Assembly: GCF_050920415.1 (NCBI RefSeq)
Contig: NZ_CP169309.1
Strand: one strand, 5' to 3'
From: Escherichia coli
Lineage (GTDB): Bacteria > Pseudomonadota > Gammaproteobacteria > Enterobacterales > Enterobacteriaceae
DNA length: 64,000 bases
Under the pieces are notes generated by a model that did not search any database, was not told the origin of the DNA, and saw only the letters and a list, made by a program, of their open reading frames with translations. Positions 2,140-63,571 of the stretch are shown here, in pieces (position 1 is the first letter of the stretch; each line of letters starts with the position of its first letter). The position numbers and the translations under genes are program-made.

Positions 2140-3567
2140 CTAGCGCGACTGCTGATTATATTCATCATCGCGTTGATAAGCTTCATCATTCGGCTGCTCC
2201 GGTACCGACCGCAGTCGATACTCTTCATCCTGGCTCACCGCTTGTTCAGCCAAATCCGGATTAATCTCGCGTTTAATTTCTACTCCTAAACCGCGAAACG
2301 CTTCTGCTTGCGCCAGCACATTTCCGCGACCTGAAGAGAGTTTTTTCATTGCCTGGCGATAGTTATCCTGCGCTTTGTCGAGACTTTGACCAATCGCGGA
2401 CATATCATCGACAAACAAGCGCATTTTGTCGTACAACTTGCTGGCACGATCGGCTATTTTCTGAGCGTTGCGGCTTTGATGCTCATAGCGCCAGAGGTTG
2501 GCGATAGTGCGCAGCGCCACCAGCAGCGTGGTCGGGCTAACCAGCATGATATTGTTTTTCAACGCTTCGGTGATCAGCTCCGGCTGGCGGTCAAGCGCCA
2601 GTAAAAATGCGGGCTCAACAGGGATAAACATCAGCACGTAATCCAGGGTTCGTAGCCCCGGCAGCTGTTGATAATCTTTACGTCCCAGCAAGCGGATGTG
2701 GTTACGCACCGACGCGATATGTTCCTGTAGCGAGCTTTCGCGGGTGTAGTCGTCTTCTGCGTTGAAATAGCGTTCATAGGCGACCAGCGTCATTTTGGCG
2801 TCGATCACCACATCTTTTCCGTGCGGCAACCGCACGATGACATCCGGCTGCATCCGCGAGCGGGCGTCATTTTCGATGCTGACCTGGGTTTCATATTCAT
2901 ACCCTTCACGCAGACCGGAAGCCTCCAGCACACGCGTCAATACTACCTCGCCCCAGTTGCCCTGGGTTTTATTGTCGCCTTTCAGCGCACGCGTCAGGTT
3001 GATCGCTTCCTGGGCCATTTGCGCGTTGAGCTGCTGGAGATTGCGTATTTCGTGAGTCAGGGTATGGCGTTCTTGTGCTTCTTTACCGAAACTGTCCTGA
3101 ACCTGACGACGAAAATCGTCCAGTTGTTCACGTAGTGGCGACAACAGGCTGTTCAGACTCTGACGGTTTTGCTCATCAACCCGGCGATTGCTGTGCTCGA
3201 AAATACGGTTGGCGAGGTTTTCAAACTGCTCACTGAGGCGCTGTTCGCTGTTGATCATTTGGCGAATTTTATCGTCAGCATGTTGCTGTACAGCCTCCAT
3301 TCGCGTGGTGACTTCACGCAGATCCGCCTCCAGCGAGGTGTTAATGCTTTGCAGACTGCGCACTTCATTATTGAGTAACTCGCACTCAGCACGCCAATGT
3401 TCGCTTTGGGTAATTTGTTGTTTTGCCGCACTTAACTCCGCGACCATCTCTTCACGTTCAGCGAATTGCTCGGCTTTTTGCTGCGCATGCTGATAACTGG
3501 CAATCAGCCAGCCAATCGCCACGCTCACCAACGCAATAACTGCGTAAACCATGATTGAGATATCCAC
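2140..3567 (-). CDS. rmuC: RmuC DNA recombination protein, 475 aa from GTG
   Basis: Track frame 2140..3660; GGAGG 4 nt before GTG at 3565-3567 (VDISIMVYAVIAL...), which matches the 475-aa length I recall for RmuC; ATG five codons downstream is the alternative start. Confidence 0.85.
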   Translation of the reverse strand: MDISIMVYAVIALVSVAIGWLIASYQHAQQKAEQFAEREEMVAELSAAKQQITQSEHWRAECELLNNEVRSLQSINTSLEADLREVTTRMEAVQQHADDKIRQMINSEQRLSEQFENLANRIFEHSNRRVDEQNRQSLNSLLSPLREQLDDFRRQVQDSFGKEAQERHTLTHEIRNLQQLNAQMAQEAINLTRALKGDNKTQGNWGEVVLTRVLEASGLREGYEYETQVSIENDARSRMQPDVIVRLPHGKDVVIDAKMTLVAYERYFNAEDDYTRESSLQEHIASVRNHIRLLGRKDYQQLPGLRTLDYVLMFIPVEPAFLLALDRQPELITEALKNNIMLVSPTTLLVALRTIANLWRYEHQSRNAQKIADRASKLYDKMRLFVDDMSAIGQSLDKAQDNYRQAMKKLSSGRGNVLAQAEAFRGLGVEIKREINPDLAEQAVSQDEEYRLRSVPEQPNDEAYQRDDEYNQQSR

Positions 3568-3685
3568 AACGCCTCCAGCCTCATTACTTACCCGCACAAA
3601 ATAGAATTGTGCTGTACAAACGTCCAGTTTGAAAGAAGTTTCCTGCGAGGCGCTACGCAAAACGATCCTTAATTTTTATTATTTT

Positions 3686-3722
3686 ATCCCACAATATGAG
3701 ACGTAGTTTATATTGTGGGATA
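3686..3722. promoter_or_regulatory. Perfect 13-bp inverted repeat TATCCCACAATAT-N11-ATATTGTGGGATA, candidate operator in rmuC/IclR-gene divergent spacer
   Basis: Read directly; lies 58-94 bp upstream of the IclR-family gene ATG. Confidence 0.5.
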
Positions 3723-3779
3723 TATCACCTTTTCCCCACGTCATTATGTGGAACACTTCAGCAATATCATCAGGAGAAA

Positions 3780-4550
3780 CGTATGGCAGATACCTCTTCA
3801 ACCACCGCTGGCGCACAAACGTTATTACGCGGGCTGGCGGTTCTTAATGCTGTTTATAACGGCTGCCATGACCTGAAAAGTATCGGCGAGTTCACCGGCA
3901 CGACCCGGAGCACAACCCATCGTTTAGTCACCGTTCTGGTGGAACAACGCTACCTGCGCCACGTCCCAACGCAGGGCTACCAACTGGGCGCCAAACTGAT
4001 CGAATTCGGTGCCAGAGCGCTGGAAAGCACCTCGCTGTACGAAGTTGCGCTGCCCGTTTTGCAACGCCTTGCCCGTTACACCCTGGACACCGTGCATCTG
4101 GGGATCGTTGAAGGCGACGAAGTGCTGTATCTGGAGAAGATCAACAGCCAGCGCGGGCTGGAAATGCGCTCACGCCCAGGCCATCGCATGCCACTGGCAA
4201 TCACCGGCATCGGCAAGGCATTGATCCTCAACCGAACAGAAGAAGAGTGGCGCACGCTGTTTAAGACCTGTGGTGATGAAACAAAACTGGGCGCATTTAT
4301 TCAGAACATGCGTCGTTATGCCGCCAGTGGTTTTGCTTTTGATCTGGAAGAGAACGAGCCGACTATCCGTTGCGTTGCAGCGCCGGTTTACAACGCCCGG
4401 GATGAAATTGTGGCGGCTATTTCTGTCGCCAGTACCACTACGTATATGTCACTGGCGCGTCTGGAAGAACTGGCACCTTACGTCAAATCCTGTGCAGAAG
4501 AGATATCCGCTGAACTGGGCTGGGGTAAGCACGTTCACAAAAATAAATAA
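3780..4550 (+). CDS. IclR-family transcriptional regulator, 256 aa
   Basis: Track frame 3696..4550; start set at ATG 3780 (MADTSSTTAGAQTLLRGLAVLNAV...) with AGGAG 6 nt upstream; N-terminal HTH then effector domain typical of IclR/KdgR-type regulators. Confidence 0.8.
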   Translation, partial: RMADTSSTTAGAQTLLRGLAVLNAVYNGCHDLKSIGEFTGTTRSTTHRLVTVLVEQRYLRHVPTQGYQLGAKLIEFGARALESTSLYEVALPVLQRLARYTLDTVHLGIVEGDEVLYLEKINSQRGLEMRSRPGHRMPLAITGIGKALILNRTEEEWRTLFKTCGDETKLGAFIQNMRRYAASGFAFDLEENEPTIRCVAAPVYNARDEIVAAISVASTTTYMSLARLEELAPYVKSCAEEISAELGWGKHVHKNK

Positions 4551-4573
4551 ACCATGACTAAAGGAAACGGCTA

Positions 4574-5578
4574 ATGTCGGGAAACACCTCATTTATTGCC
4601 CTGGACTGGGGAACGTCATCGCTTCGGGCATGGCGTTTTGGCGACTCACCCAATCCACAAGAAAAACGTGAATTCCCGTGGGGGATCATGAAATTACCCT
4701 CCCAGGCAGCAACACGTGAGGACGCTTTCCACGATACGTTTTTACGTGTCTGCGGCGACTGGCTGGCACAATCCCCATGCCCGATTCTGGCTTGCGGCAT
4801 GATCGGCAGTGCGCAAGGGTGGCAACCCGCAGCTTATTTACCTTGCCCGGTCACTCTCGAGGGTCTGGCAAAGCAGTTGACGCCTGTTATCTACCAGCAG
4901 CAGACAATGCTGCACATCATTCCCGGCGTGATTAAAGAAGGTGAAATGCCCGAAGTGATGCGTGGCGAAGAGACACAAATCTTCGGTGCTATCTCGATGG
5001 AACCGGCCCTGCAAAACGCGCTCCGCCAGGGTATGCCTGTGCTGATTGGCTTACCTGGCACACATGCGAAATGGGCGGTAGTTGAAAACAACACCATTAC
5101 CGATTTTCGAACCTTTATGACAGGCGAGTTATTTGATGTTTTATCCCGCCATTCGATTCTCGGTGCCACCATGCGTTCGGGAGATGAACCGCACTGGGAT
5201 GCCTTCGCCCACGGGCTGACAGCGGCACAAGAGCATCATCAGACCGGATTATTATCGACGCTGTTTTCGACCCGTTCGCGCCTGCTGACCAGTAATCTTA
5301 CGCCGTCCTCACAGGGGGATTACCTTTCAGGATTACTGATAGGCCATGAATTATGCGGTCTGGCATCCAGTTTGCTACGTGATTTACCCGCCACAACACC
5401 GATCGCCTTAATCGGTAGCGCCACTCTGAACAGCCGCTATTCACAAGCATTCAGCCACGTTTTTCCCGACAGACAGCTACACGCCATTCCTAATGCCACT
5501 GAACAGGGGTTATGGCGAATCGCCCACGCTGCCGGGCTACTCTCCACCAACGCCAGGGAATGTACTCATGCCATTTAA
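4574..5578 (+). CDS. 2-dehydro-3-deoxygalactonokinase (DgoK)-family sugar-acid kinase, 334 aa
   Basis: MSGNTSFIALDWGTSSLRAW..., ...MRGEETQIFGA..., ...FRTFMTGELFD... align with my recollection of E. coli DgoK; about 40 aa longer at C-terminus. Confidence 0.75.
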   Translation: MSGNTSFIALDWGTSSLRAWRFGDSPNPQEKREFPWGIMKLPSQAATREDAFHDTFLRVCGDWLAQSPCPILACGMIGSAQGWQPAAYLPCPVTLEGLAKQLTPVIYQQQTMLHIIPGVIKEGEMPEVMRGEETQIFGAISMEPALQNALRQGMPVLIGLPGTHAKWAVVENNTITDFRTFMTGELFDVLSRHSILGATMRSGDEPHWDAFAHGLTAAQEHHQTGLLSTLFSTRSRLLTSNLTPSSQGDYLSGLLIGHELCGLASSLLRDLPATTPIALIGSATLNSRYSQAFSHVFPDRQLHAIPNATEQGLWRIAHAAGLLSTNARECTHAI

Positions 5579-6197
5579 TACGCTTTTGCAAAAAACCGGG
5601 TTAGTCGCCATTTTACGCGGCGTGAAACCGGATGAGATTGTCGCCATCGGTGAAAAGCTGTATGCCTCTGGATTTCGCCTGATTGAGATTCCCATGAACT
5701 CGCCGGAGCCGTTGCAAAGTATCAGTTTACTGCGCGACGCCCTGCCTAAGGACTGCCTGGTCGGAGCCGGAACTGTGCTTTCGGTGGAGCACGTCGTCGC
5801 GGTTAAAGAGGCTGGAGGCCAGATTATCGTGATGCCGCATTGCGATACTGCGGTGATCCGTCGTGCCCGTGCGCTGGGTATGTATTGTGCGCCTGGCGTC
5901 GCTACGCCCACCGAAGCTTTTGCTGCCATTGAGCATGGTGCTAATGCCATCAAGCTGTTCCCGGCTGAACAAATTACGCCTGAAGTCACCAAAGCCTGGC
6001 GTGCGGTTATTCCACAATCCGTTCCGATGTTACCGGTTGGCGGTATCACTCCGGAAACCATGGCGCGTTATCTGAGCCACGGTGCAAACGGCTTTGGTCT
6101 CGGTTCTGCGCTTTATCGCCCTGGCATGACGCCAGAGCAGGTCTATAAAAATGCAGTACTGTTTATGAACGCATGGACCAATTTAAACAACAACTAA
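5568..6197 (+). CDS. KDPG/KDPGal-aldolase family protein (DgoA-like), 209 aa
   Basis: Track frame 5493..6197; start set at ATG 5568 (MPFNTLLQKTGLVAILRGVKPDE...), overlapping the kinase gene by 11 nt; aldolase motifs AILRG, GAGTVL, PVGGIT. Confidence 0.75.
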   Translation: MPFNTLLQKTGLVAILRGVKPDEIVAIGEKLYASGFRLIEIPMNSPEPLQSISLLRDALPKDCLVGAGTVLSVEHVVAVKEAGGQIIVMPHCDTAVIRRARALGMYCAPGVATPTEAFAAIEHGANAIKLFPAEQITPEVTKAWRAVIPQSVPMLPVGGITPETMARYLSHGANGFGLGSALYRPGMTPEQVYKNAVLFMNAWTNLNNN

Positions 6198-6221: not shown

Positions 6222-7196
6222 ATGATAAAACATCTTACCTTACCGAAAAAAATGGCTGCAATGGTACTCCTTGCCGGCGCTTCCCTCAGCACTGCGCCTG
6301 TGCAGGCGGCCTCCTACCCAACCAAACAGATCGAGTTAGTCGTACCCTACGCGGCCGGAGGCGGTACGGATCTGGTTGCCCGTGCCTTTGCTGATGCCGC
6401 CAAAAACCATTTGCCCGTCAGCATCGGGGTTATCAATAAACCTGGCGGTGGCGGCGCTATCGGCCTGAGTGAAATCGCCGCTGCCCGCCCTAACGGTTAC
6501 AAAATGGGTTTAGGCACGGTTGAACTGACCACCCTTCCCAGCCTCGGAATGGTGCGTTTTAAAACCAGCGACTTTAAACCCATTGCCCGTCTGAACGCGG
6601 ATCCGGCTGCTATCACCGTCCGTTCTGATGCGCCGTGGAATAGCTATGAAGAATTTATGACTTACGCCAAAGCGAATCCCGGAAAAGTACGCATTGGTAA
6701 CTCAGGCACCGGAGCAATCTGGCATCTGGCGGCAGCTGCACTGGAAGACAAAACGGGCGTGAAGTTTTCTCATGTCCCATATGACGGCGCAGCCCCTGCC
6801 ATTACAGGCCTGTTAGGCGGGCATATTGAAGCGGTTTCCGTAAGCCCAGGTGAAGTTATCAATCATGTGAAAGGCGGCAAGCTGAAGACACTGGTAGTGA
6901 TGGCGGATGAACATATGAAAACCATGCCTGACGTACCGACGTTAAAAGAGAAAGGCGTTGATCTCTCCATCGGCACCTGGCGCGGTCTGATCGTGTCGCA
7001 AAAAACGCCGCAGGATGTGGTTGATGTTCTGGCTAAGGCCGCAAAAGAGACGGCTGAAGAGCCTGCATTCCAGGATGCTCTGCAAAAGTTGAATCTCAAC
7101 TATGCATGGCTTGATGGTGCCAGCTTCCAGACCCAAATCAACGAACAGGAAAAGTACTTTGACGAGTTACTAACTCGGCTGGGCTTGAAAAAATAA
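6222..7196 (+). CDS. tctC: Tripartite tricarboxylate transporter (TTT) periplasmic substrate-binding protein, TctC/Bug family, 324 aa
   Basis: N-terminal signal peptide (MIKHLTLPKKMAAMVLLAGASLSTAPVQA); AAGGGTDL motif typical of TctC/Bug proteins. Confidence 0.8.
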   Translation: MIKHLTLPKKMAAMVLLAGASLSTAPVQAASYPTKQIELVVPYAAGGGTDLVARAFADAAKNHLPVSIGVINKPGGGGAIGLSEIAAARPNGYKMGLGTVELTTLPSLGMVRFKTSDFKPIARLNADPAAITVRSDAPWNSYEEFMTYAKANPGKVRIGNSGTGAIWHLAAAALEDKTGVKFSHVPYDGAAPAITGLLGGHIEAVSVSPGEVINHVKGGKLKTLVVMADEHMKTMPDVPTLKEKGVDLSIGTWRGLIVSQKTPQDVVDVLAKAAKETAEEPAFQDALQKLNLNYAWLDGASFQTQINEQEKYFDELLTRLGLKK

Positions 7197-7212: not shown

Positions 7213-7719
7213 ATGAACACAAAACAGTCTGTTGCTCAACTCGCCGTACCGCACCGCAAGCGCCTTTCATCCACTGTGGTGGTGGCGCTGTTACTTTGTG
7301 TGGTTGCTGGCGCGGTGATAATTAATGCCGCTGATTTTCCAGCAACTGCCATTGAAACGGATCCCGGTGCAAGTGCCTTCCCTACTTTCTATGCCTGCGC
7401 TCTGATTGTGCTCGCTGTCTTACTGGTGATACGCGATCTTTTGCTGGCAAAACCAGTCCCTTGCGCCAACGCACAGGAAAAACCGGCATTAAGGAAAACG
7501 GCAACAGGAATTGCGGCAACCGCGTTTTATATTGTGGCGATGAGCTACTGCGGTTATCTCATTACTACTCCTGTTTTCCTCATCGTCATTATGACGTTGA
7601 TGGGCTACAGGCGATGGGTACTCACACCGGGTATTGCGCTGCTGTTAACGGCAATCCTCTGGTTGCTGTTTGTCGAAGCGTTACAGGTGCCATTGCCTGT
7701 CGGCACATTTTTCGAATAA
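7213..7719 (+). CDS. tctB: TTT small membrane subunit TctB, 168 aa
   Basis: Small hydrophobic multi-TM protein between tctC-like and tctA-like genes. Confidence 0.75.
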   Translation: MNTKQSVAQLAVPHRKRLSSTVVVALLLCVVAGAVIINAADFPATAIETDPGASAFPTFYACALIVLAVLLVIRDLLLAKPVPCANAQEKPALRKTATGIAATAFYIVAMSYCGYLITTPVFLIVIMTLMGYRRWVLTPGIALLLTAILWLLFVEALQVPLPVGTFFE

Positions 7720-7731
7720 CAGGGGCCTGCA

Positions 7732-9222
7732 ATGTTTGAAAGTGAACTTTTAACTCAGGGGTTTTCGACATTACTCAGTAATCCTCAGGCGCTGCTGTTT
7801 GCCACGTTTGGAGTGATGCTGGGTATTATGATTGGCGCTCTGCCTGGCCTGACAGCGACCATGGGTGTGGCGATTTTGCTGCCTTTCACCTACGGCATGG
7901 AGCCTGTTTCTGGCTTATTGATGATTTGCGGTGTCTTTTTTGGTGGTGTGTATGGTGGTTCTATCACCGCAATTTTGCTCAAAATTCCCGGTACACCTGC
8001 CGCCGCTGCCACCGCCATTGACGGATATGAGCTGACGAAGCAGGGAAAAGCCGGGCTGGCGTTAAGTGCCGCCACGTTCTCTTCTTTTAGCGGTGGAACG
8101 CTCAGCATTATCGTATTGATGTTTCTCTCTCCGGTACTTGCCAGTTGGGCGTTGAAATTTAGTGCCTCGGAGTCCTTCGCCCTGGCAACCTTCGGGCTAA
8201 GTATTATTGCCAGTATTTCCGGTGAGTCACTGATTAAAGGGCTGATTGCCGGGGTTGGCGGATTGCTGATCGCAACGATAGGCCTTGATCCAATGGGCGG
8301 TTTTCCACGCTTTACAGGTGGATTTGTGGAGCTGATGAATGTGCCATTTATCCCGGTGATGATTGGTCTGTTTGCTGCTTCAGAAGCATTCCGCTCTATG
8401 GAGCAAAACCAGCAAATTCGTCAGGGGGCGAAGGTGGCTATCGGCAGTCTGTTACTGCCCTGGCAAACACTACGCCGCATCGCATTAACCATTTTGCGCT
8501 CATCAGGATTAGGGGTTTTTATCGGCATGATCCCCGGTGCGGGGGCAGATATTGCAGCTTTTGTTGCCTATAACGAAACTCGTCGTTTCAGTAAGACGCC
8601 TGAAAACTTTGGTAAGGGTGAGATTAAGGCGGTGGCCTCCTGTGAGGCAGGCGCGAATGGCTGCACCGGTGGCGCATTGTTACCTATGCTGACGTTGGGG
8701 ATCCCAGGCGATGCGGTAACTGCCATCATGCTGGGCGCGTTAACGTTACAAGGGATGCAGCCAGGCCCACTGATGTTTACCGACCACGGCGATATGGTTT
8801 ATACGCTGTTTGTCGGCATGATCTTTTGTTACTTCATGCTGCTAGTTCTTGGACTGCTCTCTTTGAAAGTCATCGGTAACGTGGTGAAGATCCCCGGCAA
8901 TATTCTCACGCCGATGATCCTCGCGCTTTGTGTTGTTGGGACTTATGCGCTGAACAACAGCCTGTTTGATGTTGGCATTATGCTGATTGCAGGCGTGGTG
9001 GGCTATTTCATGCAAAAAGGGGGGTATCCGGCGTCACCCGTAGTGCTGGCATTGATTATGGGGCCAATGGCGGAAAGTAATTTTCGCCGTGCGCTGTCGC
9101 TTTCAGGGGGGTCACTCGACTTCCTGTATACCCGACCGATAACCCTGGCATTGCTGACTCTGGCAGCCTTTACGCTACTGACGCCAATAATACGCAAAAT
9201 TATGCGCTTACGGCGTCAGTAA
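7732..9222 (+). CDS. tctA: TTT large permease subunit TctA, 496 aa
   Basis: About 500-aa polytopic membrane protein with Gly-rich helices, directly after tctB-like gene. Confidence 0.8.
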   Translation: MFESELLTQGFSTLLSNPQALLFATFGVMLGIMIGALPGLTATMGVAILLPFTYGMEPVSGLLMICGVFFGGVYGGSITAILLKIPGTPAAAATAIDGYELTKQGKAGLALSAATFSSFSGGTLSIIVLMFLSPVLASWALKFSASESFALATFGLSIIASISGESLIKGLIAGVGGLLIATIGLDPMGGFPRFTGGFVELMNVPFIPVMIGLFAASEAFRSMEQNQQIRQGAKVAIGSLLLPWQTLRRIALTILRSSGLGVFIGMIPGAGADIAAFVAYNETRRFSKTPENFGKGEIKAVASCEAGANGCTGGALLPMLTLGIPGDAVTAIMLGALTLQGMQPGPLMFTDHGDMVYTLFVGMIFCYFMLLVLGLLSLKVIGNVVKIPGNILTPMILALCVVGTYALNNSLFDVGIMLIAGVVGYFMQKGGYPASPVVLALIMGPMAESNFRRALSLSGGSLDFLYTRPITLALLTLAAFTLLTPIIRKIMRLRRQ

Positions 9223-9276
9223 TTGATATCGCTCCCCGACGTTGGGGAGTATGAGACTGATGACAAACGCTAAATT

Positions 9277-9376
9277 GCCTGATGCGCTGCGCTTATCAGG
9301 CCTACCACAGAAATGCAATATATTGAATTTGCATGCTTTTGTAGGCCGGATAAGGCGATCACGCCGCATCCGGCAT
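9277..9376. repeat. REP pair (BIME) in tctA-udp spacer
   Basis: gcctgatgcgctgcgcttatcaggcctac and gtaggccggataaggcgatcacgccgcatccggca, inverted REP consensus units. Confidence 0.8.
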
Positions 9377-9407
9377 GAACAAAGCACACGTTAACAACAA
9401 TCGGAAT

Positions 9408-9437
9408 GCTCCCCGACGTTGGGGAGCGTTTTTTTAT
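9408..9437 (+). terminator. Hairpin GCTCCCCGACGTTGGGGAGC followed by T7 run; intrinsic-terminator-like, oriented for plus strand
   Basis: Stem CTCCCC/GGGGAG then TTTTTTTATTT; sits just before udp stop; a copy of the hairpin without T-run occurs at 9231-9249. Confidence 0.5.
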
Positions 9438-10198
9438 TTCAGCAGACGACGCGCCGCTTCCACCACGATTTTCACCGCATGGCTTTCGGTTTGTTTCATC
9501 GTCTCAGCATTCGGGATCTCTTGCTGGGTACGATTGACGATAACGCCCGCCACCATACCCGCACGCAGGCCCTGGCTTGCACACATGGTCAGCAGGGTTG
9601 CAGATTCCATTTCATAGTTCATTACGCCCATCGCCTGCCACTCTTCCATAGAACCTTTAAAGTGACGGACTACACGACCAGAGTAAGTATCGTAACGTTC
9701 CTGACCTGGGTAGAAGGTATCAGAAGAAGCCGTCACACCAACGTGAGTGGTGGCACCAATTGACTTCGCCGCTTCAACCAGCGCGGTCGTACATTCGAAA
9801 TCTGCGACAGCCGGGAACTCCAGCGGAGCGAAGTGCAGGCTCGCGCCATCCAGACGAACAGACGCCGTGGTCACCAGCACATCACCCACATTAATATGCG
9901 GCTGGATAGCGCCCGTTGTACCGATACGCAGGAAGGTGCGAATGCCCAGCTGTGCCAGCTCTTCAACCGCAATAGAGGTAGACGGGCCGCCGATACCGGT
10001 AGAGCAGACGATAACAGGTTTACCATCCAGCTCTGCACGCCAGGTGGTGAATTCGCGGTGAGATGCCAGCTTAACCGGCTTATCCATCAGCGCGGCGATC
10101 TTTTCCACACGATCCGGGTCGCCAGGGACGATGGCAAGCGTAGCCCCTTGTAAATCGTTTTTAGTGAGGCCGAGATGAAAAACATCATACTTGGACAT
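9434..10198 (-). CDS. udp: Uridine phosphorylase, 254 aa
   Basis: Track [38 protein letters not shown]...; start set at second in-frame ATG (MSK...). Confidence 0.9.
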
Positions 10199-10269
10199 AT
10201 ACAACTCCTCTGTGAATCGGTTTAGTCAGAAGAAGCAAAAAGACACTTTACCGAAGGGTTTGACATTTT

Positions 10270-10345
10270 TTCGTGACACTCATCACCTTGATGCAAATGC
10301 GTTGCATAAATTTACCCAGCAAAAGTGATGCGAATCACATAAATC
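10270..10345 (-). promoter_or_regulatory. udp promoter region: two CRP-like sites flanking a TGCAA-repeat CytR-type element
   Basis: Minus-strand read: aTGTGAttcgcaTCACt and gGTGAtgagtgTCACg about 52 bp apart with ttgcaacgcatttgca between; matches known udp CRP/CytR architecture. Confidence 0.6.
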
Positions 10346-11663: not shown

Positions 11664-12062
11664 ATGAGTGATATTATTTACCTGACCATAACCGGAGAAC
11701 AACACGGATGTATTTCCTCTCGTTGTGGAACGAGCACATCAATAGGTAATCGCTGGCAGATTGGTCATGAAGATGAAATCTTCGCGTTCTCGCTCTCTAA
11801 TAGTATTACGAATACAGGAAAAGGGTCACATTTGCATGGCCTTAGTTTCTGTAAGTTGATTGACAAAAGCTCCCCGTTACTTATTAACGCTATTAACAAT
11901 AACGAGCAGTTGTTCATGGAGTTTGACTTCTATCGGATCAATAGATTTGGTCGATGGGAGAAATATTACAACATTCAACTCCGCGGCGCGCTCTTATCAG
12001 CAATCAATCACCTGTTTACGGAGAACAATCTGGATACAGAAACCATCACTGTCAGTTATTAA
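11664..12062 (+). CDS. Hcp-family (T6SS tube protein) domain ORF, 132 aa, ends at TAA in frame with the downstream toxin-like ORF
   Basis: MSDIIYLTITGEQHG...GKGSHLHGLSFCKLIDKSSPLL...FDFYRINRFGRWEKYYNIQL fits the Hcp-family pattern; AT-rich. Confidence 0.7.
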   Translation: MSDIIYLTITGEQHGCISSRCGTSTSIGNRWQIGHEDEIFAFSLSNSITNTGKGSHLHGLSFCKLIDKSSPLLINAINNNEQLFMEFDFYRINRFGRWEKYYNIQLRGALLSAINHLFTENNLDTETITVSY

Positions 12063-12107: not shown

Positions 12108-12812
12108 TTGGCATTTCCCGATAACTACAATCGTCTGTTTATACCACGGCCAAAAACTAAAGATGATAATGGCCTCAAAACACTCAATAGTAAAGCTGTT
12201 GGCAGACTGCTTGCTGCTGGCGGCATATACAATGGGAATATCGAAGGATTCAGGGAAACAGCAAACAAGTTGGGGGGAGATGCACCTGCTGGTTACGATC
12301 AAGTTATGGATAACAAAGGGTTACTCATCGCTGGTGCTTCAATAGTTGCTGGAGCAGTTCTGGGGAGAATGAGACTCCCTGATTTGGAATCACTTGAGCA
12401 TTTCGGAGCCAGAGGAGCAGTATCAGGAAGACCATTTAATCCCGACCTTGCCGGTGGTCCAATAGAAAATCTGACGACAGATGGCGTAACAATCAACAGG
12501 GAAGGTATCGCTATTGTTGAAAAACACATAGCCAGATTTGGTCATGACCCTGTAAATGAAGTGATGATCAATAGACTGAAAGACATTGAGAAAGGAAAAA
12601 TCCCCCCAGAACAAGTAGATCTTAACTTCTATACTCATGAATGTCGGGAATATCAGCGTTACTGTAATCTTGGTTGGGAAACAGGACAACCTGATGGTGA
12701 CGCAGGCTATGCACTCTGGAATCATACGCATACTGCTACTCTAGAAGATTATAAACTTAAGGGAGAACTTAATGACTTATACCACCAGGATGCACTTGAC
12801 TATGATAACTGA
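12108..12812 (+). CDS. Toxin-like C-terminal domain ORF (class undetermined), same frame as upstream Hcp ORF; 234 aa from TTG
   Basis: Same reading frame as 11664..12062 with only one stop (TAA 12060-12062) and 15 open codons between; no ATG or SD of its own. Confidence 0.6.
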   Translation: MAFPDNYNRLFIPRPKTKDDNGLKTLNSKAVGRLLAAGGIYNGNIEGFRETANKLGGDAPAGYDQVMDNKGLLIAGASIVAGAVLGRMRLPDLESLEHFGARGAVSGRPFNPDLAGGPIENLTTDGVTINREGIAIVEKHIARFGHDPVNEVMINRLKDIEKGKIPPEQVDLNFYTHECREYQRYCNLGWETGQPDGDAGYALWNHTHTATLEDYKLKGELNDLYHQDALDYDN

Positions 12813-25358: not shown

Positions 25359-25668
25359 AAAATAAATATATTCTGAAAAAATATGCCGACTCTTGCATGA
25401 GAGTGGGCATATTGCCATGCTGACAGGAGACTCACATAAGGAAAGGCAGAATTTCCAGACGTCGTTGTATATTTTCATTTGCTTTAATAAATTTCATTTT
25501 TGGTAAATTCAGCATTATGTTATTAGCGATGAGCAAGACCAATCATTAACCAAGTTCTCTTCAGAATGTAATGAAAAATGTGAAGTGCATTTCTTTTTTA
25601 AAATTTTTTTACCCTATTATTTCTTATCAAATTAACATTGCCCTTAATTATAAGAAAGGAGAATATAA

Positions 25669-26517
25669 ATGAACAACATATTAGGCTCATCAATTAATAT
25701 GCCCTGTACACTTTTCGAAACTATTACTTTATTCGATGATTTTTCTGCTGATGATATGCAGTATGGGGATATGGAAGAACAAGATTTTCTCTCACTCGGC
25801 TTAAGCGACATCTCTGCAAAAGTTGATCCTTACCGCCTCATTAAATACCATTTTCCTGGGCCGAATTCTACTTATGGTGCTTTTAGTGTTCCAACTTCTG
25901 GAACAAAAATATCACAAAGTGAATGTATTGATATTTTATTTGCAGAAATGAAAGATCTGGCAAAAATGTTTTCCTTTTTTGGACAATACAAAACACTCAT
26001 CCAGGATCTGATTGATCATTTTAGATATGGAAATGGCAACAGTTTCCATAGCCAGGAATTGAACTTATCTTTTCATGAACGAATAAACAAATATGATTAT
26101 AATAGCCCAATACGTGTAATCAAAGAATGTATCGAAAATGATATTTCTTCAACACCTACGATAGGATACCGGCCTCTTCTCCTACAAAAGATTAAGACCG
26201 AATTACTTTCATCAAGACTAAATAAATTCAATGATTTTAAAGATAATTTTAATGGCCTGGGAATCAGCATTCATGATATCTCAGCTCAAAAAATATCTCT
26301 TTTAAATTTTCAAAAATATCCTATGGGCTGGAGCGCTACCATTCATTTCATAGCACAAGACCACTTTGGTTTGGATGTGACTGATATAAAAAACAAGATT
26401 TACAACAAGTATAGATTTTTTCGCATATGGTTCTTTTTACAACGGCATAAAGACTTTGCTTTCAAACCTTTTTTTACCAATTTTAACACTATCGAAAGAA
26501 TCGAAAATTATCTATGA
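25669..26517 (+). CDS. Hypothetical protein, 282 aa, AT-rich gene at the yigG/yigF position
   Basis: Long ORF in AT-rich DNA with a Shine-Dalgarno AAGGAG 7 nt upstream; no family I can assign. Confidence 0.6.
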   Translation: MNNILGSSINMPCTLFETITLFDDFSADDMQYGDMEEQDFLSLGLSDISAKVDPYRLIKYHFPGPNSTYGAFSVPTSGTKISQSECIDILFAEMKDLAKMFSFFGQYKTLIQDLIDHFRYGNGNSFHSQELNLSFHERINKYDYNSPIRVIKECIENDISSTPTIGYRPLLLQKIKTELLSSRLNKFNDFKDNFNGLGISIHDISAQKISLLNFQKYPMGWSATIHFIAQDHFGLDVTDIKNKIYNKYRFFRIWFFLQRHKDFAFKPFFTNFNTIERIENYL

Positions 26518-26942
26518 AAAGCAAACTCCAGAAAATTATATTATATTTATTTCTTATATGCTGCATCTATAATTTATGGACATTGCGTCCTGTACAGATT
26601 TTGTATACATACTCTGATGCTGGCAATTCAGTCTTTCTGGTCGTTGATCATCTGCCATGGACTGATAGCGATAAAATAAATTGGTATCTGAAGCATCAGG
26701 ATGAAATTAAAAGTCAAAATCCCCTACCAGAAGGTAGTTGGCATACCTGGTATGTTATTGATATCGGTAATGGCTTCACTGACTATAAAAAATATATCGA
26801 AGGGCTGTATGAAGATCTCTACTGTTTCCCGACGATTAAGAGCAATGATAATTGCATCGTAAAAAACTATTTAATGGTTATTAATGAATATCCTTACCGT
26901 AATACTCATTTTTTATTGCTGATAACAATGAGTATCAACTAA
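26514..26942 (+). CDS. Hypothetical small protein with N-terminal hydrophobic segment, 142 aa, translationally coupled to upstream gene
   Basis: ATGA start/stop overlap with 25669..26517; MKSKLQKIILYLFLICCIYNLW signal/anchor-like N-terminus. Confidence 0.6.
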   Translation: MKSKLQKIILYLFLICCIYNLWTLRPVQILYTYSDAGNSVFLVVDHLPWTDSDKINWYLKHQDEIKSQNPLPEGSWHTWYVIDIGNGFTDYKKYIEGLYEDLYCFPTIKSNDNCIVKNYLMVINEYPYRNTHFLLLITMSIN

Positions 26943-27045
26943 CCCAGGAAAATAAGATAGAGCGAGTGTTCAACCCGCATGACTTTGAAAAAGACAATTT
27001 TCAGCAATAAGCCGGATAAAGAACAATCTTTACCCGGCATTTATA

Positions 27046-27996
27046 TTACAACCAGTTCTTCCGCTTAAAGTAAAGATACGGTGCCAGGCCCGCGAGGATC
27101 ATAAAGATAATCGCGCCTGGGTAGCCGAAGCTCCACTTCAGTTCCGGCATAAACTCAAAGTTCATCCCGTAGCTGGAAGCGACCAGCGTCGGTGGCAGGA
27201 ACACCACGGATACCACCGAGAAGATTTTAATGATGCGGTTCTGCTCGATATTGATAAAGCCCATCGCCGCCTGCATCAGGAAGTTCACCTTCTGGAACAG
27301 GGATTCGTTATGCGGCAGCAGGGATTCGATATCTCGCAGGATTTCACGCGCCTGCTCCAGTTGCCCACCCGGTAAGCGTGCTTTACGTACCAGGAAGTTG
27401 AGCGCGCGCTGGGTATCCATCAGACACAGGCGAACTTTCCAGCCGATATCTTCCAGTTCCGCCAGCGTGGAGAGCGCCTCGTCGTACTCATCGCCCTGAT
27501 GCCCTTCCATAATCACCCGGCTCAACTGCTCCAGGTCGCTGTAGATATTTTCAATTTCATCTGCCAGCTGTTCGATTTTGGTTTCGAACAGATCCAACAG
27601 CAGCTCGTAGGCGTTACCGTCCACCATTGACTGGCTACGGGCGCGCATACGATACAGACGGAATGCAGGCAGTTCACGCTCACGCAGAGTAAACAGACGA
27701 CCATCACGGATGGTAAATGCCACAGTGGAGTTACCGGCGTGATCTTCCGCATCTTCAAAGAAGAAGAAGGAGTGAATATGCAGGCCGTCATCGTCTTCAA
27801 AGAAACGCGCTGATGCTTCGATGTCTTCCAGTTCCGGGCGTGTTGCCAGGCTCTGGCCAAGTTCAGATTGTACGCGCAGTCGCTCGTCGTCGTCCGGTTC
27901 GACAAGATCAATCCATACTGCATTTACAAGGGGTTGTGACTCTTCGACTTCCAGCCGGGTCAGTCGGTTATTTTCCAGTTGAAATGCGCTCAGCAT
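27046..27996 (-). CDS. corA: CorA Mg2+/Co2+ transporter, 316 aa
   Basis: Track frame to 28011; start set at [17 protein letters not shown]...; C-terminal [11 protein letters not shown] motif. Confidence 0.95.
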
Positions 27997-63529: not shown

Positions 63530-63571
63530 CAGATATAAAAGCAAAACGCCACGTAAACACGTGGCGTTTTT
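63530..63571 (-). terminator. Intrinsic terminator downstream of rho
   Basis: AAACGCCACG-taaaca-CGTGGCGTTT hairpin with T-runs on both strands. Confidence 0.7.

Follow-up and report, generated by a model that had tools for sequence, protein, structure and literature searches.

A perfect inverted repeat upstream of an IclR-family regulator gene in an Escherichia coli islet is probably a tandem-site operator

What is the function of a long, perfect inverted repeat located just upstream of a gene for an IclR-family regulator in Escherichia coli? The element in question lies in a 64,000-nucleotide stretch of E. coli DNA (contig NZ_CP169309.1 of assembly GCF_050920415.1; hereafter the window), within the 216-bp spacer (3567-3782, 40% G+C) which separates rmuC from the first gene of a six-gene islet. 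A preliminary description, made from the sequence alone, placed a perfect 13-bp inverted repeat in this spacer, starting at position 3686 with an 11-nt interval, and regarded it as a candidate operator of the adjacent regulator. A repeat search confirmed the location and the perfection of this dyad, whose 13-nt arms are 100% complementary. It begins one base earlier than first described, with the left arm (TATCCCACAATAT) at 3685-3697, the right arm (ATATTGTGGGATA) at 3710-3722 and 12 nt (GAGACGTAGTTT) between them, no strand being assigned to either arm. The left arm is directly preceded by TTT and the right arm directly followed by TATCACC, and when one mismatch is permitted, the arms grow to 15 nt (TATCCCACAATATGA / TTATATTGTGGGATA). 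As developed below, the proposal of an operator is well supported, and the dyad is very probably the site recognized by the adjacent IclR-family regulator. Four independent lines of sequence evidence agree on this reading: the dyad is specific to the islet, it is conserved in front of orthologous operons located in unrelated contexts, it fits the motif and spacing published for group-1 IclR-family operators, and it is associated with a shared recognition helix.

The repeat is difficult to attribute to chance, as the preliminary description had argued. Of 20,000 shuffled versions of the spacer that kept its dinucleotide composition, only 2 (about 1 in 10,000) contained perfectly complementary arms of 13 nt or more around a loop of at most 30 nt, and with the same loop limit, the dyad is the longest perfect inverted repeat of the whole window. 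A search for the same dyad elsewhere, put forward earlier as a check, returned no further copy of the 13-mer with up to two mismatches in the window, matches with three mismatches being at chance level, and a single place per E. coli genome. The second longest perfect inverted repeat of the window is found at 63543-63570 (AAAACGCCACGT-N4-ACGTGGCGTTTT, 12-nt arms) and resembles a bidirectional terminator.

Only some 22 bp separate the dyad from the islet's left junction (3662-3663), and it sits in the rmuC-proximal part of the spacer, a position which could suggest a relic of islet insertion, such as a terminal repeat or a recombination site, or an element regulating rmuC. In E. coli K-12, the six islet genes are missing and homology with the window stops at about 3662, which makes the dyad islet DNA and not a conserved part of the rmuC promoter. 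The possibility that it belongs to the rmuC promoter in island-free genomes, which the preliminary description had raised as a counterargument, is thereby ruled out: the dyad is absent from islet-free E. coli, and the rmuC gene of K-12 has no such element. No integrase or transposase gene is found at the islet in the RefSeq annotation, and the same motif is present where the operon sits in other genomic contexts, in Brenneria, Phytobacter, Citrobacter and Burkholderiaceae. Chance, an insertion scar and rmuC regulation are already largely refuted and, taken together, are hardly credible. Of 5426 complete E. coli genomes, 1456 have a single copy of the islet spacer itself, those of UTI89, LF82, ST131 strains and BL21 among them.

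If the dyad is an operator, how is it organized? The 13-N12-13 arrangement is best read as the outer halves of two tandem 17-bp sites, rather than as one long palindrome. The first pseudo-palindrome, O1 (3686-3702, ATCCCAC-AAT-ATGAGAC), which is the most conserved block of the spacer, is composed of boxes 1 and 2, and the second, O2 (3705-3721, AGTTTAT-ATT-GTGGGAT), of boxes 3 and 4, the four 7-bp boxes (ATCCCAC, ATGAGAC, AGTTTAT and GTGGGAT) alternating in direction. The perfect 13-bp repeat would then correspond to the strong outer box of each site together with its A/T centre. The centres of O1 (3694) and O2 (3713) are 19 bp apart, so that both sites lie roughly on one face of the helix. 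Between them, positions 3702-3706 (CGTAG in the window) form a variable centre.

Such an organization has precedents. The main (group 1) motif of the IclR family has been defined as GKTYCRY-W3-4-RYGRAMC (Suvorova & Gelfand 2021, PMC8222616), and the same study described multi-box sites with alternating box direction as well as, for 94 orthologous groups, tandem sites spaced by 18-22 bp, which were ascribed to tetramers bound on one DNA face (PMC8222616). Like these operators, the window site combines 17-bp palindromes, 7-bp boxes, an A/T centre and alternating boxes, and its 19-bp spacing is within the published class. With the consensus GKTYCRY-W3-RYGRAMC, O1 matches 14 of 17 positions and O2 13 of 17, a score of at least 14 being reached by only 0.05% of the 17-mers of the window. 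Three other pairs with tandem spacing fit the generic consensus in the window, and the spacing is thus supportive rather than unique. Unlike the published group-1 operators, the box core is here GGGA/TCCC or GAGA instead of GRAAC, and the inner boxes are weak in Escherichia, leaving the outer ones to form the long perfect dyad.

A similar motif has been predicted for an alpha-proteobacterial group of IclR-family regulators (AZC_2272/3, M446_4911/2, Mnod_6621/2, Cseg_2734/5), namely ATCCCAyATaaTGGGAT in tandem copies 20 bp apart (PMC8222616, part of the supplement). The boxes of M446_4911 (ATCCCATATatTGGGAT + gTttCtTtaTgTGGGAT) are nearly identical to those of the window (ATCCCACAATATGAGAC + AGTTTATATTGTGGGAT), both being predicted sites, and each pair comprises one strong and one weaker site. 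The alpha-proteobacterial sites have a 20-bp spacing and divergent genes, whereas the window has a 19-bp spacing and a regulator-first operon. The regulator group shared by E. coli and Burkholderia does not appear in the covered part of that supplement. Known motifs from other IclR-family regulators were also considered and rejected: the KdgR box (RWWGAAACGNCGTTTCAKKA) matches the spacer at 15 of 20 positions at best, straddling the O1/O2 centre; the best matches of the IclR box (TGGAAATNATTTCCA) and of the AllR box reach 10/15 and 14/19, respectively, both outside the dyad; and matches to the group-2 IclR consensus are poor or outside the dyad.

Is this architecture retained when the operon is found elsewhere? 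Orthologs of the regulator in other enterobacterial genera are 52-72% identical to it, and each heads a regulator-dgoK-dgoA-tctCBA locus, some of these being at the rmuC/udp position and others elsewhere. The 34-bp architecture occurs upstream of the operon in seven other named enterobacterial genera, its carriers comprising Buttiauxella, Phytobacter, three Klebsiella, Pseudocitrobacter, two Brenneria species, Citrobacter amalonaticus and Lelliottia. Upstream sequences include those of Buttiauxella (AATCCCATATATAGGGATAATGTTTATATTATGGGATTTGTGCATTATCTCACCG), Klebsiella spallanzanii (AATCCCATATATAGGGATGCAATCTTATAAATAGGGAATTTGTGCAGTAAATCACCG), Pseudocitrobacter (ATTCCCACATATCGGGATGCCATCTTATTTGTTGGGATTTTGTGCGCTGTATCACCG), Brenneria goodwinii (AATCCCTATATGTGGGACGATCTCCCACATTATAGAATTTCGCGGAACCCGTCACA) and Citrobacter amalonaticus (AATCCCTATATATGAAACACGGGTTTATAATGTGGTATTGTGTGAGCGAATTCATA). 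The enterobacterial plan consists of TCCC-N7-G(G/A)GA (O1), a weaker copy centred 19 bp downstream (O2) and a CRP-like TGTGn-N6-TCAYn, 6-7 nt after O2. On this plan, the window reads TCCC-ACAATAT-GAGA at 3687-3701 (O1) and GTTT-ATATTGT-GGGA at 3706-3720 (O2). Two IclR paralogs are found in Citrobacter amalonaticus (L009) and Lelliottia sp. (L010), the head one having the O1-O2-CRP-like layout upstream. The trailing paralog, which follows tctA (P0012/P0011 subgroup; Citrobacter amalonaticus, Lelliottia and Serratia odorifera, L085), has no motif directly upstream.

The conservation extends to Burkholderiaceae: in about 65 species, belonging to Burkholderia, Paraburkholderia, Caballeronia and Trinickia, dgoK-dgoA follow a regulator gene whose product is about 55% identical. 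Their motif, TCCCAWTATnTGA-N8/9-TCAnATATTGGA, has a TCCC-to-GGA span of 34 bp, equal to that of 3687-3720 in the window, and one of these loci (L028, TCCCAATATATGAGACAAACACTCAAATATTGGAT) has an O1 almost identical to that of E. coli. The right box is TTGGAG, TTGGAT or TTGAAT and stands 17-18 bp upstream of a conserved TACAAT; an independent promoter scan placed the -35 element inside the right box in two of the three Burkholderiaceae loci tested. Overall, the 34-bp dyad TCCCAWWWT..AWWWTnGGA was found with at most three mismatches at 71 of 89 loci, including those about 65 Burkholderiaceae species.

Unbiased analyses point to the same place. When each 15-mer of the spacer was compared with 17 orthologous upstream regions from unrelated contexts, the footprint peaked at 3687-3701, where 11.24 of 15 positions matched and the background was 8.99 +/- 0.44. 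With a weight matrix derived from 47 distinct non-Escherichia sites, 3687-3720 (plus strand) came first among about 128,000 positions of the window. The score, 8.3 bits, is well under the Burkholderia median of 46.5, because the window site has diverged. Several of the next-best hits of this matrix, as well as pairs matching the generic IclR consensus, lie at about 25600-27300, which suggests an A/T-rich, possibly horizontally acquired region.

Within Escherichia, nine intact sequences were compared (the window, UTI89/FDAARGOS/BL21, LF82, WP5-S18, CU42ET-1, SCPM, E. whittamii and Escherichia sp. E1V33). The 5-nt centre (3702-3706) varies in almost every lineage, being TGGAG, TGAAG, TAGAA, CAGAG, CTGTG or CTGAG outside the window. 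The right-arm core ATATTGTGGGA is invariant in all nine, and ATCCCACAATATGAGA and GTTTATATTGTGGGA are nearly so, the exceptions being single changes at 3689 (LF82), 3692 (WP5-S18) and 3694 (SCPM). In CU42ET-1, G3706 is replaced by A, at the edge of the variable centre, and the outermost T/A of each arm is variable in both non-coli species. When a 44-bp query was searched in the 1456 islet-bearing genomes, 16 were identical to the window, 851 had 95-99% identity and 589 had 90-95% identity. The three members of the 95-99% band that were inspected (UTI89, FDAARGOS_1302 and BL21) differ by two central changes only, and the 589 genomes of the lower band, about 40% of the total, have at least one change more than this type. 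A decayed relic of the left end of the islet is found in E. coli HS-02 (L091, NZ_CP172818.1), where the spacer has small deletions, the degenerate regulator frame has no annotation, and damage to the left box (ATCCAC) is accompanied by an intact ATATTGTGGGAT.

These comparisons also bear on whether the repeat might act as RNA, as a hairpin serving as an attenuator, a processing site or a stabilizer in a 5' leader or an antisense transcript. A transcript of it would have a folding energy of -20.3 kcal/mol (z = -6.0) for the plus strand and of -16.1 kcal/mol for the minus strand, and one position covaries, from C:G in Escherichia to T:A in Buttiauxella. What is conserved goes beyond mere pairing, though: the sequences of the boxes themselves are kept down to about 55% protein identity, Klebsiella and Buttiauxella retain the short TCCC-N7-GGGA palindrome and not the long stem, and the mid-stem change in SCPM is uncompensated. 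In Burkholderiaceae, the element lies upstream of the -35 hexamer, which it also overlaps, and is thus untranscribed from that promoter. A terminator or a known RNA family was likewise rejected, since the stem lacks a downstream T-run on both strands, the dyad is not among the hits of the terminator scan and the Rfam matches are at chance level only, far under the gathering scores. An RNA function is thus very improbable.

Which features of the regulator are consistent with such an operator? The gene (3783-4550, plus strand), the first of the operon, encodes a 255-aa protein identified from gene calls, RefSeq annotation, PDB matches and the domains PF09339 and PF01614; the representative of its 99%-identical cluster (P0001) contains both HTH_IclR (PF09339) and IclR_C (PF01614). 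Residues 13-247 align with the IclR structure 1mkm, and the TtgV structures 2xrn/2xro are matched with E = 1.3e-10. The start codon is the ATG at 3783, which is preceded by AGGAG at 3773-3777. A longer open reading frame (284 aa), starting at an ATG at 3696 inside the left arm, was rejected as an artefact of frame calling, orthologs, the RefSeq annotation and the AGGAG all favoring 3783. Full-length NCBIfam matches comprise BhcR, KdgR, PcaR, IclR and AllR, and none of these identities could be assigned: BhcR, the best match (141.6 bits), and PcaR score far beneath their curated cutoffs, KdgR (NF011671), the second best and also a PDB match, reaches 127.1 bits against a cutoff of 275, IclR 91 bits against 380 and AllR 74.5 bits against 406.

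The recognition helix RSTTHRL is shared by the motif-bearing orthologs of E. coli, Buttiauxella, Phytobacter, Brenneria and four Burkholderiaceae genera, the exception being Klebsiella huaxiensis (P0015) with KSTAHRL; two paralogs of a different subgroup have KSTTHRL/KSTAHRL. A structural parallel is offered by TtgV, an IclR-family tetramer which binds an operator of roughly 40 bp. In the TtgV-ttgG operator complex (PDB 2XRO), as presumably here, a single tetramer would hold a long operator through both of its dimers. The two regulators are only remotely related, and TtgV has another sequence motif and another class of effectors, namely aromatic compounds. KdgR, a repressor of 2-keto-3-deoxygluconate genes, belongs to the same family and is linked to an analogous set of functions, comprising kinase and aldolase for a keto-deoxy sugar acid as well as a transporter; unlike the islet regulator, it is encoded outside the operon it controls.

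How would binding at this site affect transcription? Downstream of O2, a CRP-like site can be proposed at 3714-3729 (TGTGG-GATATA-TCACC, no strand assigned), matching 8 of the 10 core CRP positions, followed by a candidate extended -10 element at 3749-3757 on the plus strand (TG-G-AACACT, TGGAACACT), which would put the transcription start near 3764. The CRP-like TGTGC-N6-TCACC of other enterobacterial genera begins 6-7 nt past the GGGA of box 4, and the site is kept at a fixed offset in at least six genera. In Escherichia, the GGGA-to-TCAC stretch is 9-10 bp shorter than in these genera, so that 7 bp are shared by the CRP-like core and box 4. A weak -10-like hexamer (A2, T6) is conserved in enterobacteria 27-28 nt after TCAC, as judged from promoter geometry read by eye in the orthologs. 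It is preceded by TGn in five of them (TGnAACACT or TGnAAATAT), in the form of TGAAACACT in Buttiauxella and E. whittamii and TGGAAATAT in Citrobacter and locus L089; Klebsiella (CAGAAT) and Pseudocitrobacter (CAAAAT) lack the TG. Such a layout, in which CRP would be centred at about -42 relative to a start near 3764, resembles that of class II CRP-dependent promoters. The same CRP pattern matches the udp promoter region at 10272-10287 and 10324-10339, where CRP sites are presumably to be expected. On the evidence from sequence, the involvement of CRP at the islet promoter is an evenly balanced question. An alternative promoter, with the -10 TATATT (3709-3714) inside O2 and a poor -35 (ATCCCA), is less likely than the CRP-dependent model.

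Could the right arm then simply be part of a site for CRP or another global factor, its symmetry with the left arm being incidental? The match at 3714-3729 and the retention of a CRP-like site in other enterobacterial genera speak for this explanation. In those genera, however, the CRP-like site is kept apart from box 4, which is still conserved, and Burkholderiaceae have the dyad without any CRP-like site. The CRP pattern is moreover found at chance frequency in the window, with 24 matches against 25.5 expected. This explanation is accordingly improbable.

Two further elements lie close to the putative promoter. A candidate third site, O3 (3738-3754, ACGTCAT-TAT-GTGGAAC, no strand assigned), weakly resembles an IclR-family site, with 14 of 17 group-1 positions; its centre is 33 bp from that of O2, it overlaps the proposed -10 element and, as judged by eye, its right half alone is conserved in other genera. 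A third IclR-family site is thus possible. The sole promoter-like site of the spacer reported by the scan lies on the minus strand (3743-3770, ATGATA-16-CATAAT, 9/12), overlapping the candidate O3/-10 region and directed at the operator and rmuC. It may represent a divergent promoter or an antisense one, or be due to chance.

From these elements, a mechanism can be proposed. Without inducer, a regulator tetramer (a dimer of dimers) would most likely hold O1 and O2 together and block the promoter just downstream, which is predicted to be weak and CRP-dependent. The regulator would thereby keep the six genes of the operon regulator-dgoK'-dgoA'-tctCBA, its own among them, repressed until a 2-keto-3-deoxy-sugar-acid-type inducer binds the IclR_C domain and relieves repression. 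Repression is moderately favored over activation, because the operator overlaps the CRP-like site in Escherichia, because it is fused with the -35 of a good promoter in Burkholderiaceae, and because the characterized IclR-type regulators of sugar-acid metabolism repress, as does the regulator of the analogous dgoRKADT operon. KdgR, YiaJ and XynR, IclR-family regulators of sugar-acid catabolism, are all repressors, and DgoR of E. coli is a GntR-family repressor encoded by the first gene of dgoRKADT, which is activated by cAMP-CRP. Like the islet, dgoRKADT begins with the regulator gene, followed by dgoK and dgoA, paralogs of the islet genes, and a transporter gene, and has inverted repeats in its promoter, CRP being proposed in both cases. 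It differs by the family of its regulator (GntR versus IclR) and by its transporter, the MFS protein DgoT in place of a tripartite tricarboxylate-type system; in addition, the islet has no dgoD.

The same protein could also act positively from the same site, the regulator bound to O1-O2 activating transcription with CRP in the presence of the inducer. MhpR, PobR and PcaU are IclR-family activators, as is BhcR, the best NCBIfam match in spite of its score. With a start near 3764, the operator would extend from about -77 to -44, upstream of the core promoter, and in Klebsiella and Buttiauxella, where it immediately precedes the CRP-like site, from about -86 to -53. The shortening by 9-10 bp in Escherichia is close to one helical turn, so that helical phasing would be preserved. 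Against activation, the 7-bp overlap between the CRP-like core and box 4 in Escherichia disfavors simultaneous binding of both proteins, the right box of Burkholderiaceae doubles as the -35 element of a promoter close to consensus, as is typical of occlusion, and KdgR, YiaJ, XynR and the analogous DgoR are repressors. Activation is regarded as the less likely mode, but as a serious alternative given an operator that would lie upstream of the core promoter.

The assignment of the dyad as a repressor-type operator also has to be weighed against several observations. The operator positions just given are equally typical of repressors and activators of the IclR type. A consensus scan of the E. coli spacer returned no convincing plus-strand sigma-70 promoter, leaving the relation between operator and promoter to depend on the weak AACACT hexamer and on a CRP-like site which, given the chance frequency of its pattern, is non-significant. 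The long dyad is not kept intact either: two of the three genomes sampled from the 90-95% band have an arm substitution (LF82, TCTC; WP5-S18, CCCAT). Together with the additional changes in the 589 genomes, these substitutions indicate selection on the boxes and not on the perfection of the long dyad, which is itself not strictly selected. Finally, no binding, footprint or expression data for the regulator or the islet were found in the searchable literature, where searches for the islet, for an IclR-type DgoR and for the motif strings likewise yielded no characterization.

What would the operator control? The 5.6-kb islet is located between udp and rmuC, and a 1.2-kb query spanning its left junction (window positions 3400-4600) is 100% identical to E. 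coli strain MFDS1022581. An islet of about 5 kb with six open reading frames of unknown function was reported between udp and rmuC in avian pathogenic E. coli O1 in 2012 (PMC3349570). In the window, the regulator gene is followed on the plus strand by a gene for a 2-dehydro-3-deoxygalactonokinase-like protein of the DgoK family (4574-5578; RefSeq annotation of the identical locus, PF05035 in orthologs), a 2-dehydro-3-deoxy-6-phosphogalactonate aldolase gene (5568-6197; NF006600, 319.6 bits against a cutoff of 207) and tctC, tctB and tctA (6222-7196, 7213-7719 and 7732-9222), which encode a tripartite tricarboxylate-type transporter (gene calls and RefSeq; Pfam TctC, TctB and TctA in orthologs). 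Most simply, the six genes form one operon headed by the regulator, since the gaps between them are at most 24 bp, the promoter scan found no plus-strand promoter-like site inside the islet and a single strong plus-strand hairpin terminator (9403-9432) closes the unit. The islet encodes a kinase, an aldolase and a transporter and no dehydratase, from which it may be speculated that the inducer or substrate is a 2-keto-3-deoxy sugar acid.

On the left, the islet is bordered by rmuC (2140 to about 3566, GTG start) and ubiE (1290-2045), both on the minus strand. Upstream of rmuC, in the portion of the spacer that is conserved in K-12, there is a LexA-box-like block at 3612-3627 (CTGTACAAACGTCCAG, CTG-N10-CAG), which is also kept in the Klebsiella, Buttiauxella and Pseudocitrobacter loci; rmuC (yigN) is reportedly regulated by LexA. 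On the right, udp (9434-10204, minus strand) is separated from tctA by an interval (9222-9434) in which the hairpin CTCCCCGACGTTGGGGAG occurs twice, flanking the REP-like GCCTGATGCGCTGCGCTTATCAGGCCTAC. FDAARGOS_1302 has one hairpin and no insert, and the interval looks like a REP/BIME-type insertion which duplicated the terminator shared by tctA and udp. Further away, between ysgA and metE, an orphan gene for an Hcp/TssD type VI secretion tube protein (11664-12062; TIGR03344, 115.6 bits) is followed by an open reading frame of 234 aa (12108-12812) which has no NCBIfam match; the two may form an Hcp-effector pair.

A broader scenario can be put forward tentatively, although in its entirety it is rather doubtful. 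The deletion of about one helical turn (9-10 bp) in Escherichia would have fused box 4 with the left half of the CRP site, so that the regulator and CRP compete for 7 bp in a recently evolved direct switch; the four boxes could allow registers of group 1 as well as of group 2; and the islet would provide a sugar-acid uptake and catabolic route to B2 extraintestinal pathogenic E. coli and to BL21. If this is true, the islet would be dedicated to the uptake and catabolism of a 2-keto-3-deoxy sugar acid.

Collectively, these data describe a new, uncharacterized tandem-site operator of the IclR family, an ordinary bacterial switch that will not surprise a specialist. A defined operator offers an entry to the inducer and substrate through reporter or biosensor screens, as well as a clean test case for the binding of an IclR-family tetramer to tandem sites. 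The motif, which spans gamma- to beta-proteobacteria, can be used to annotate orthologous dgoK-dgoA operons. While the operator leaves the understanding of the IclR family unchanged, it helps to open up an unstudied islet of E. coli.

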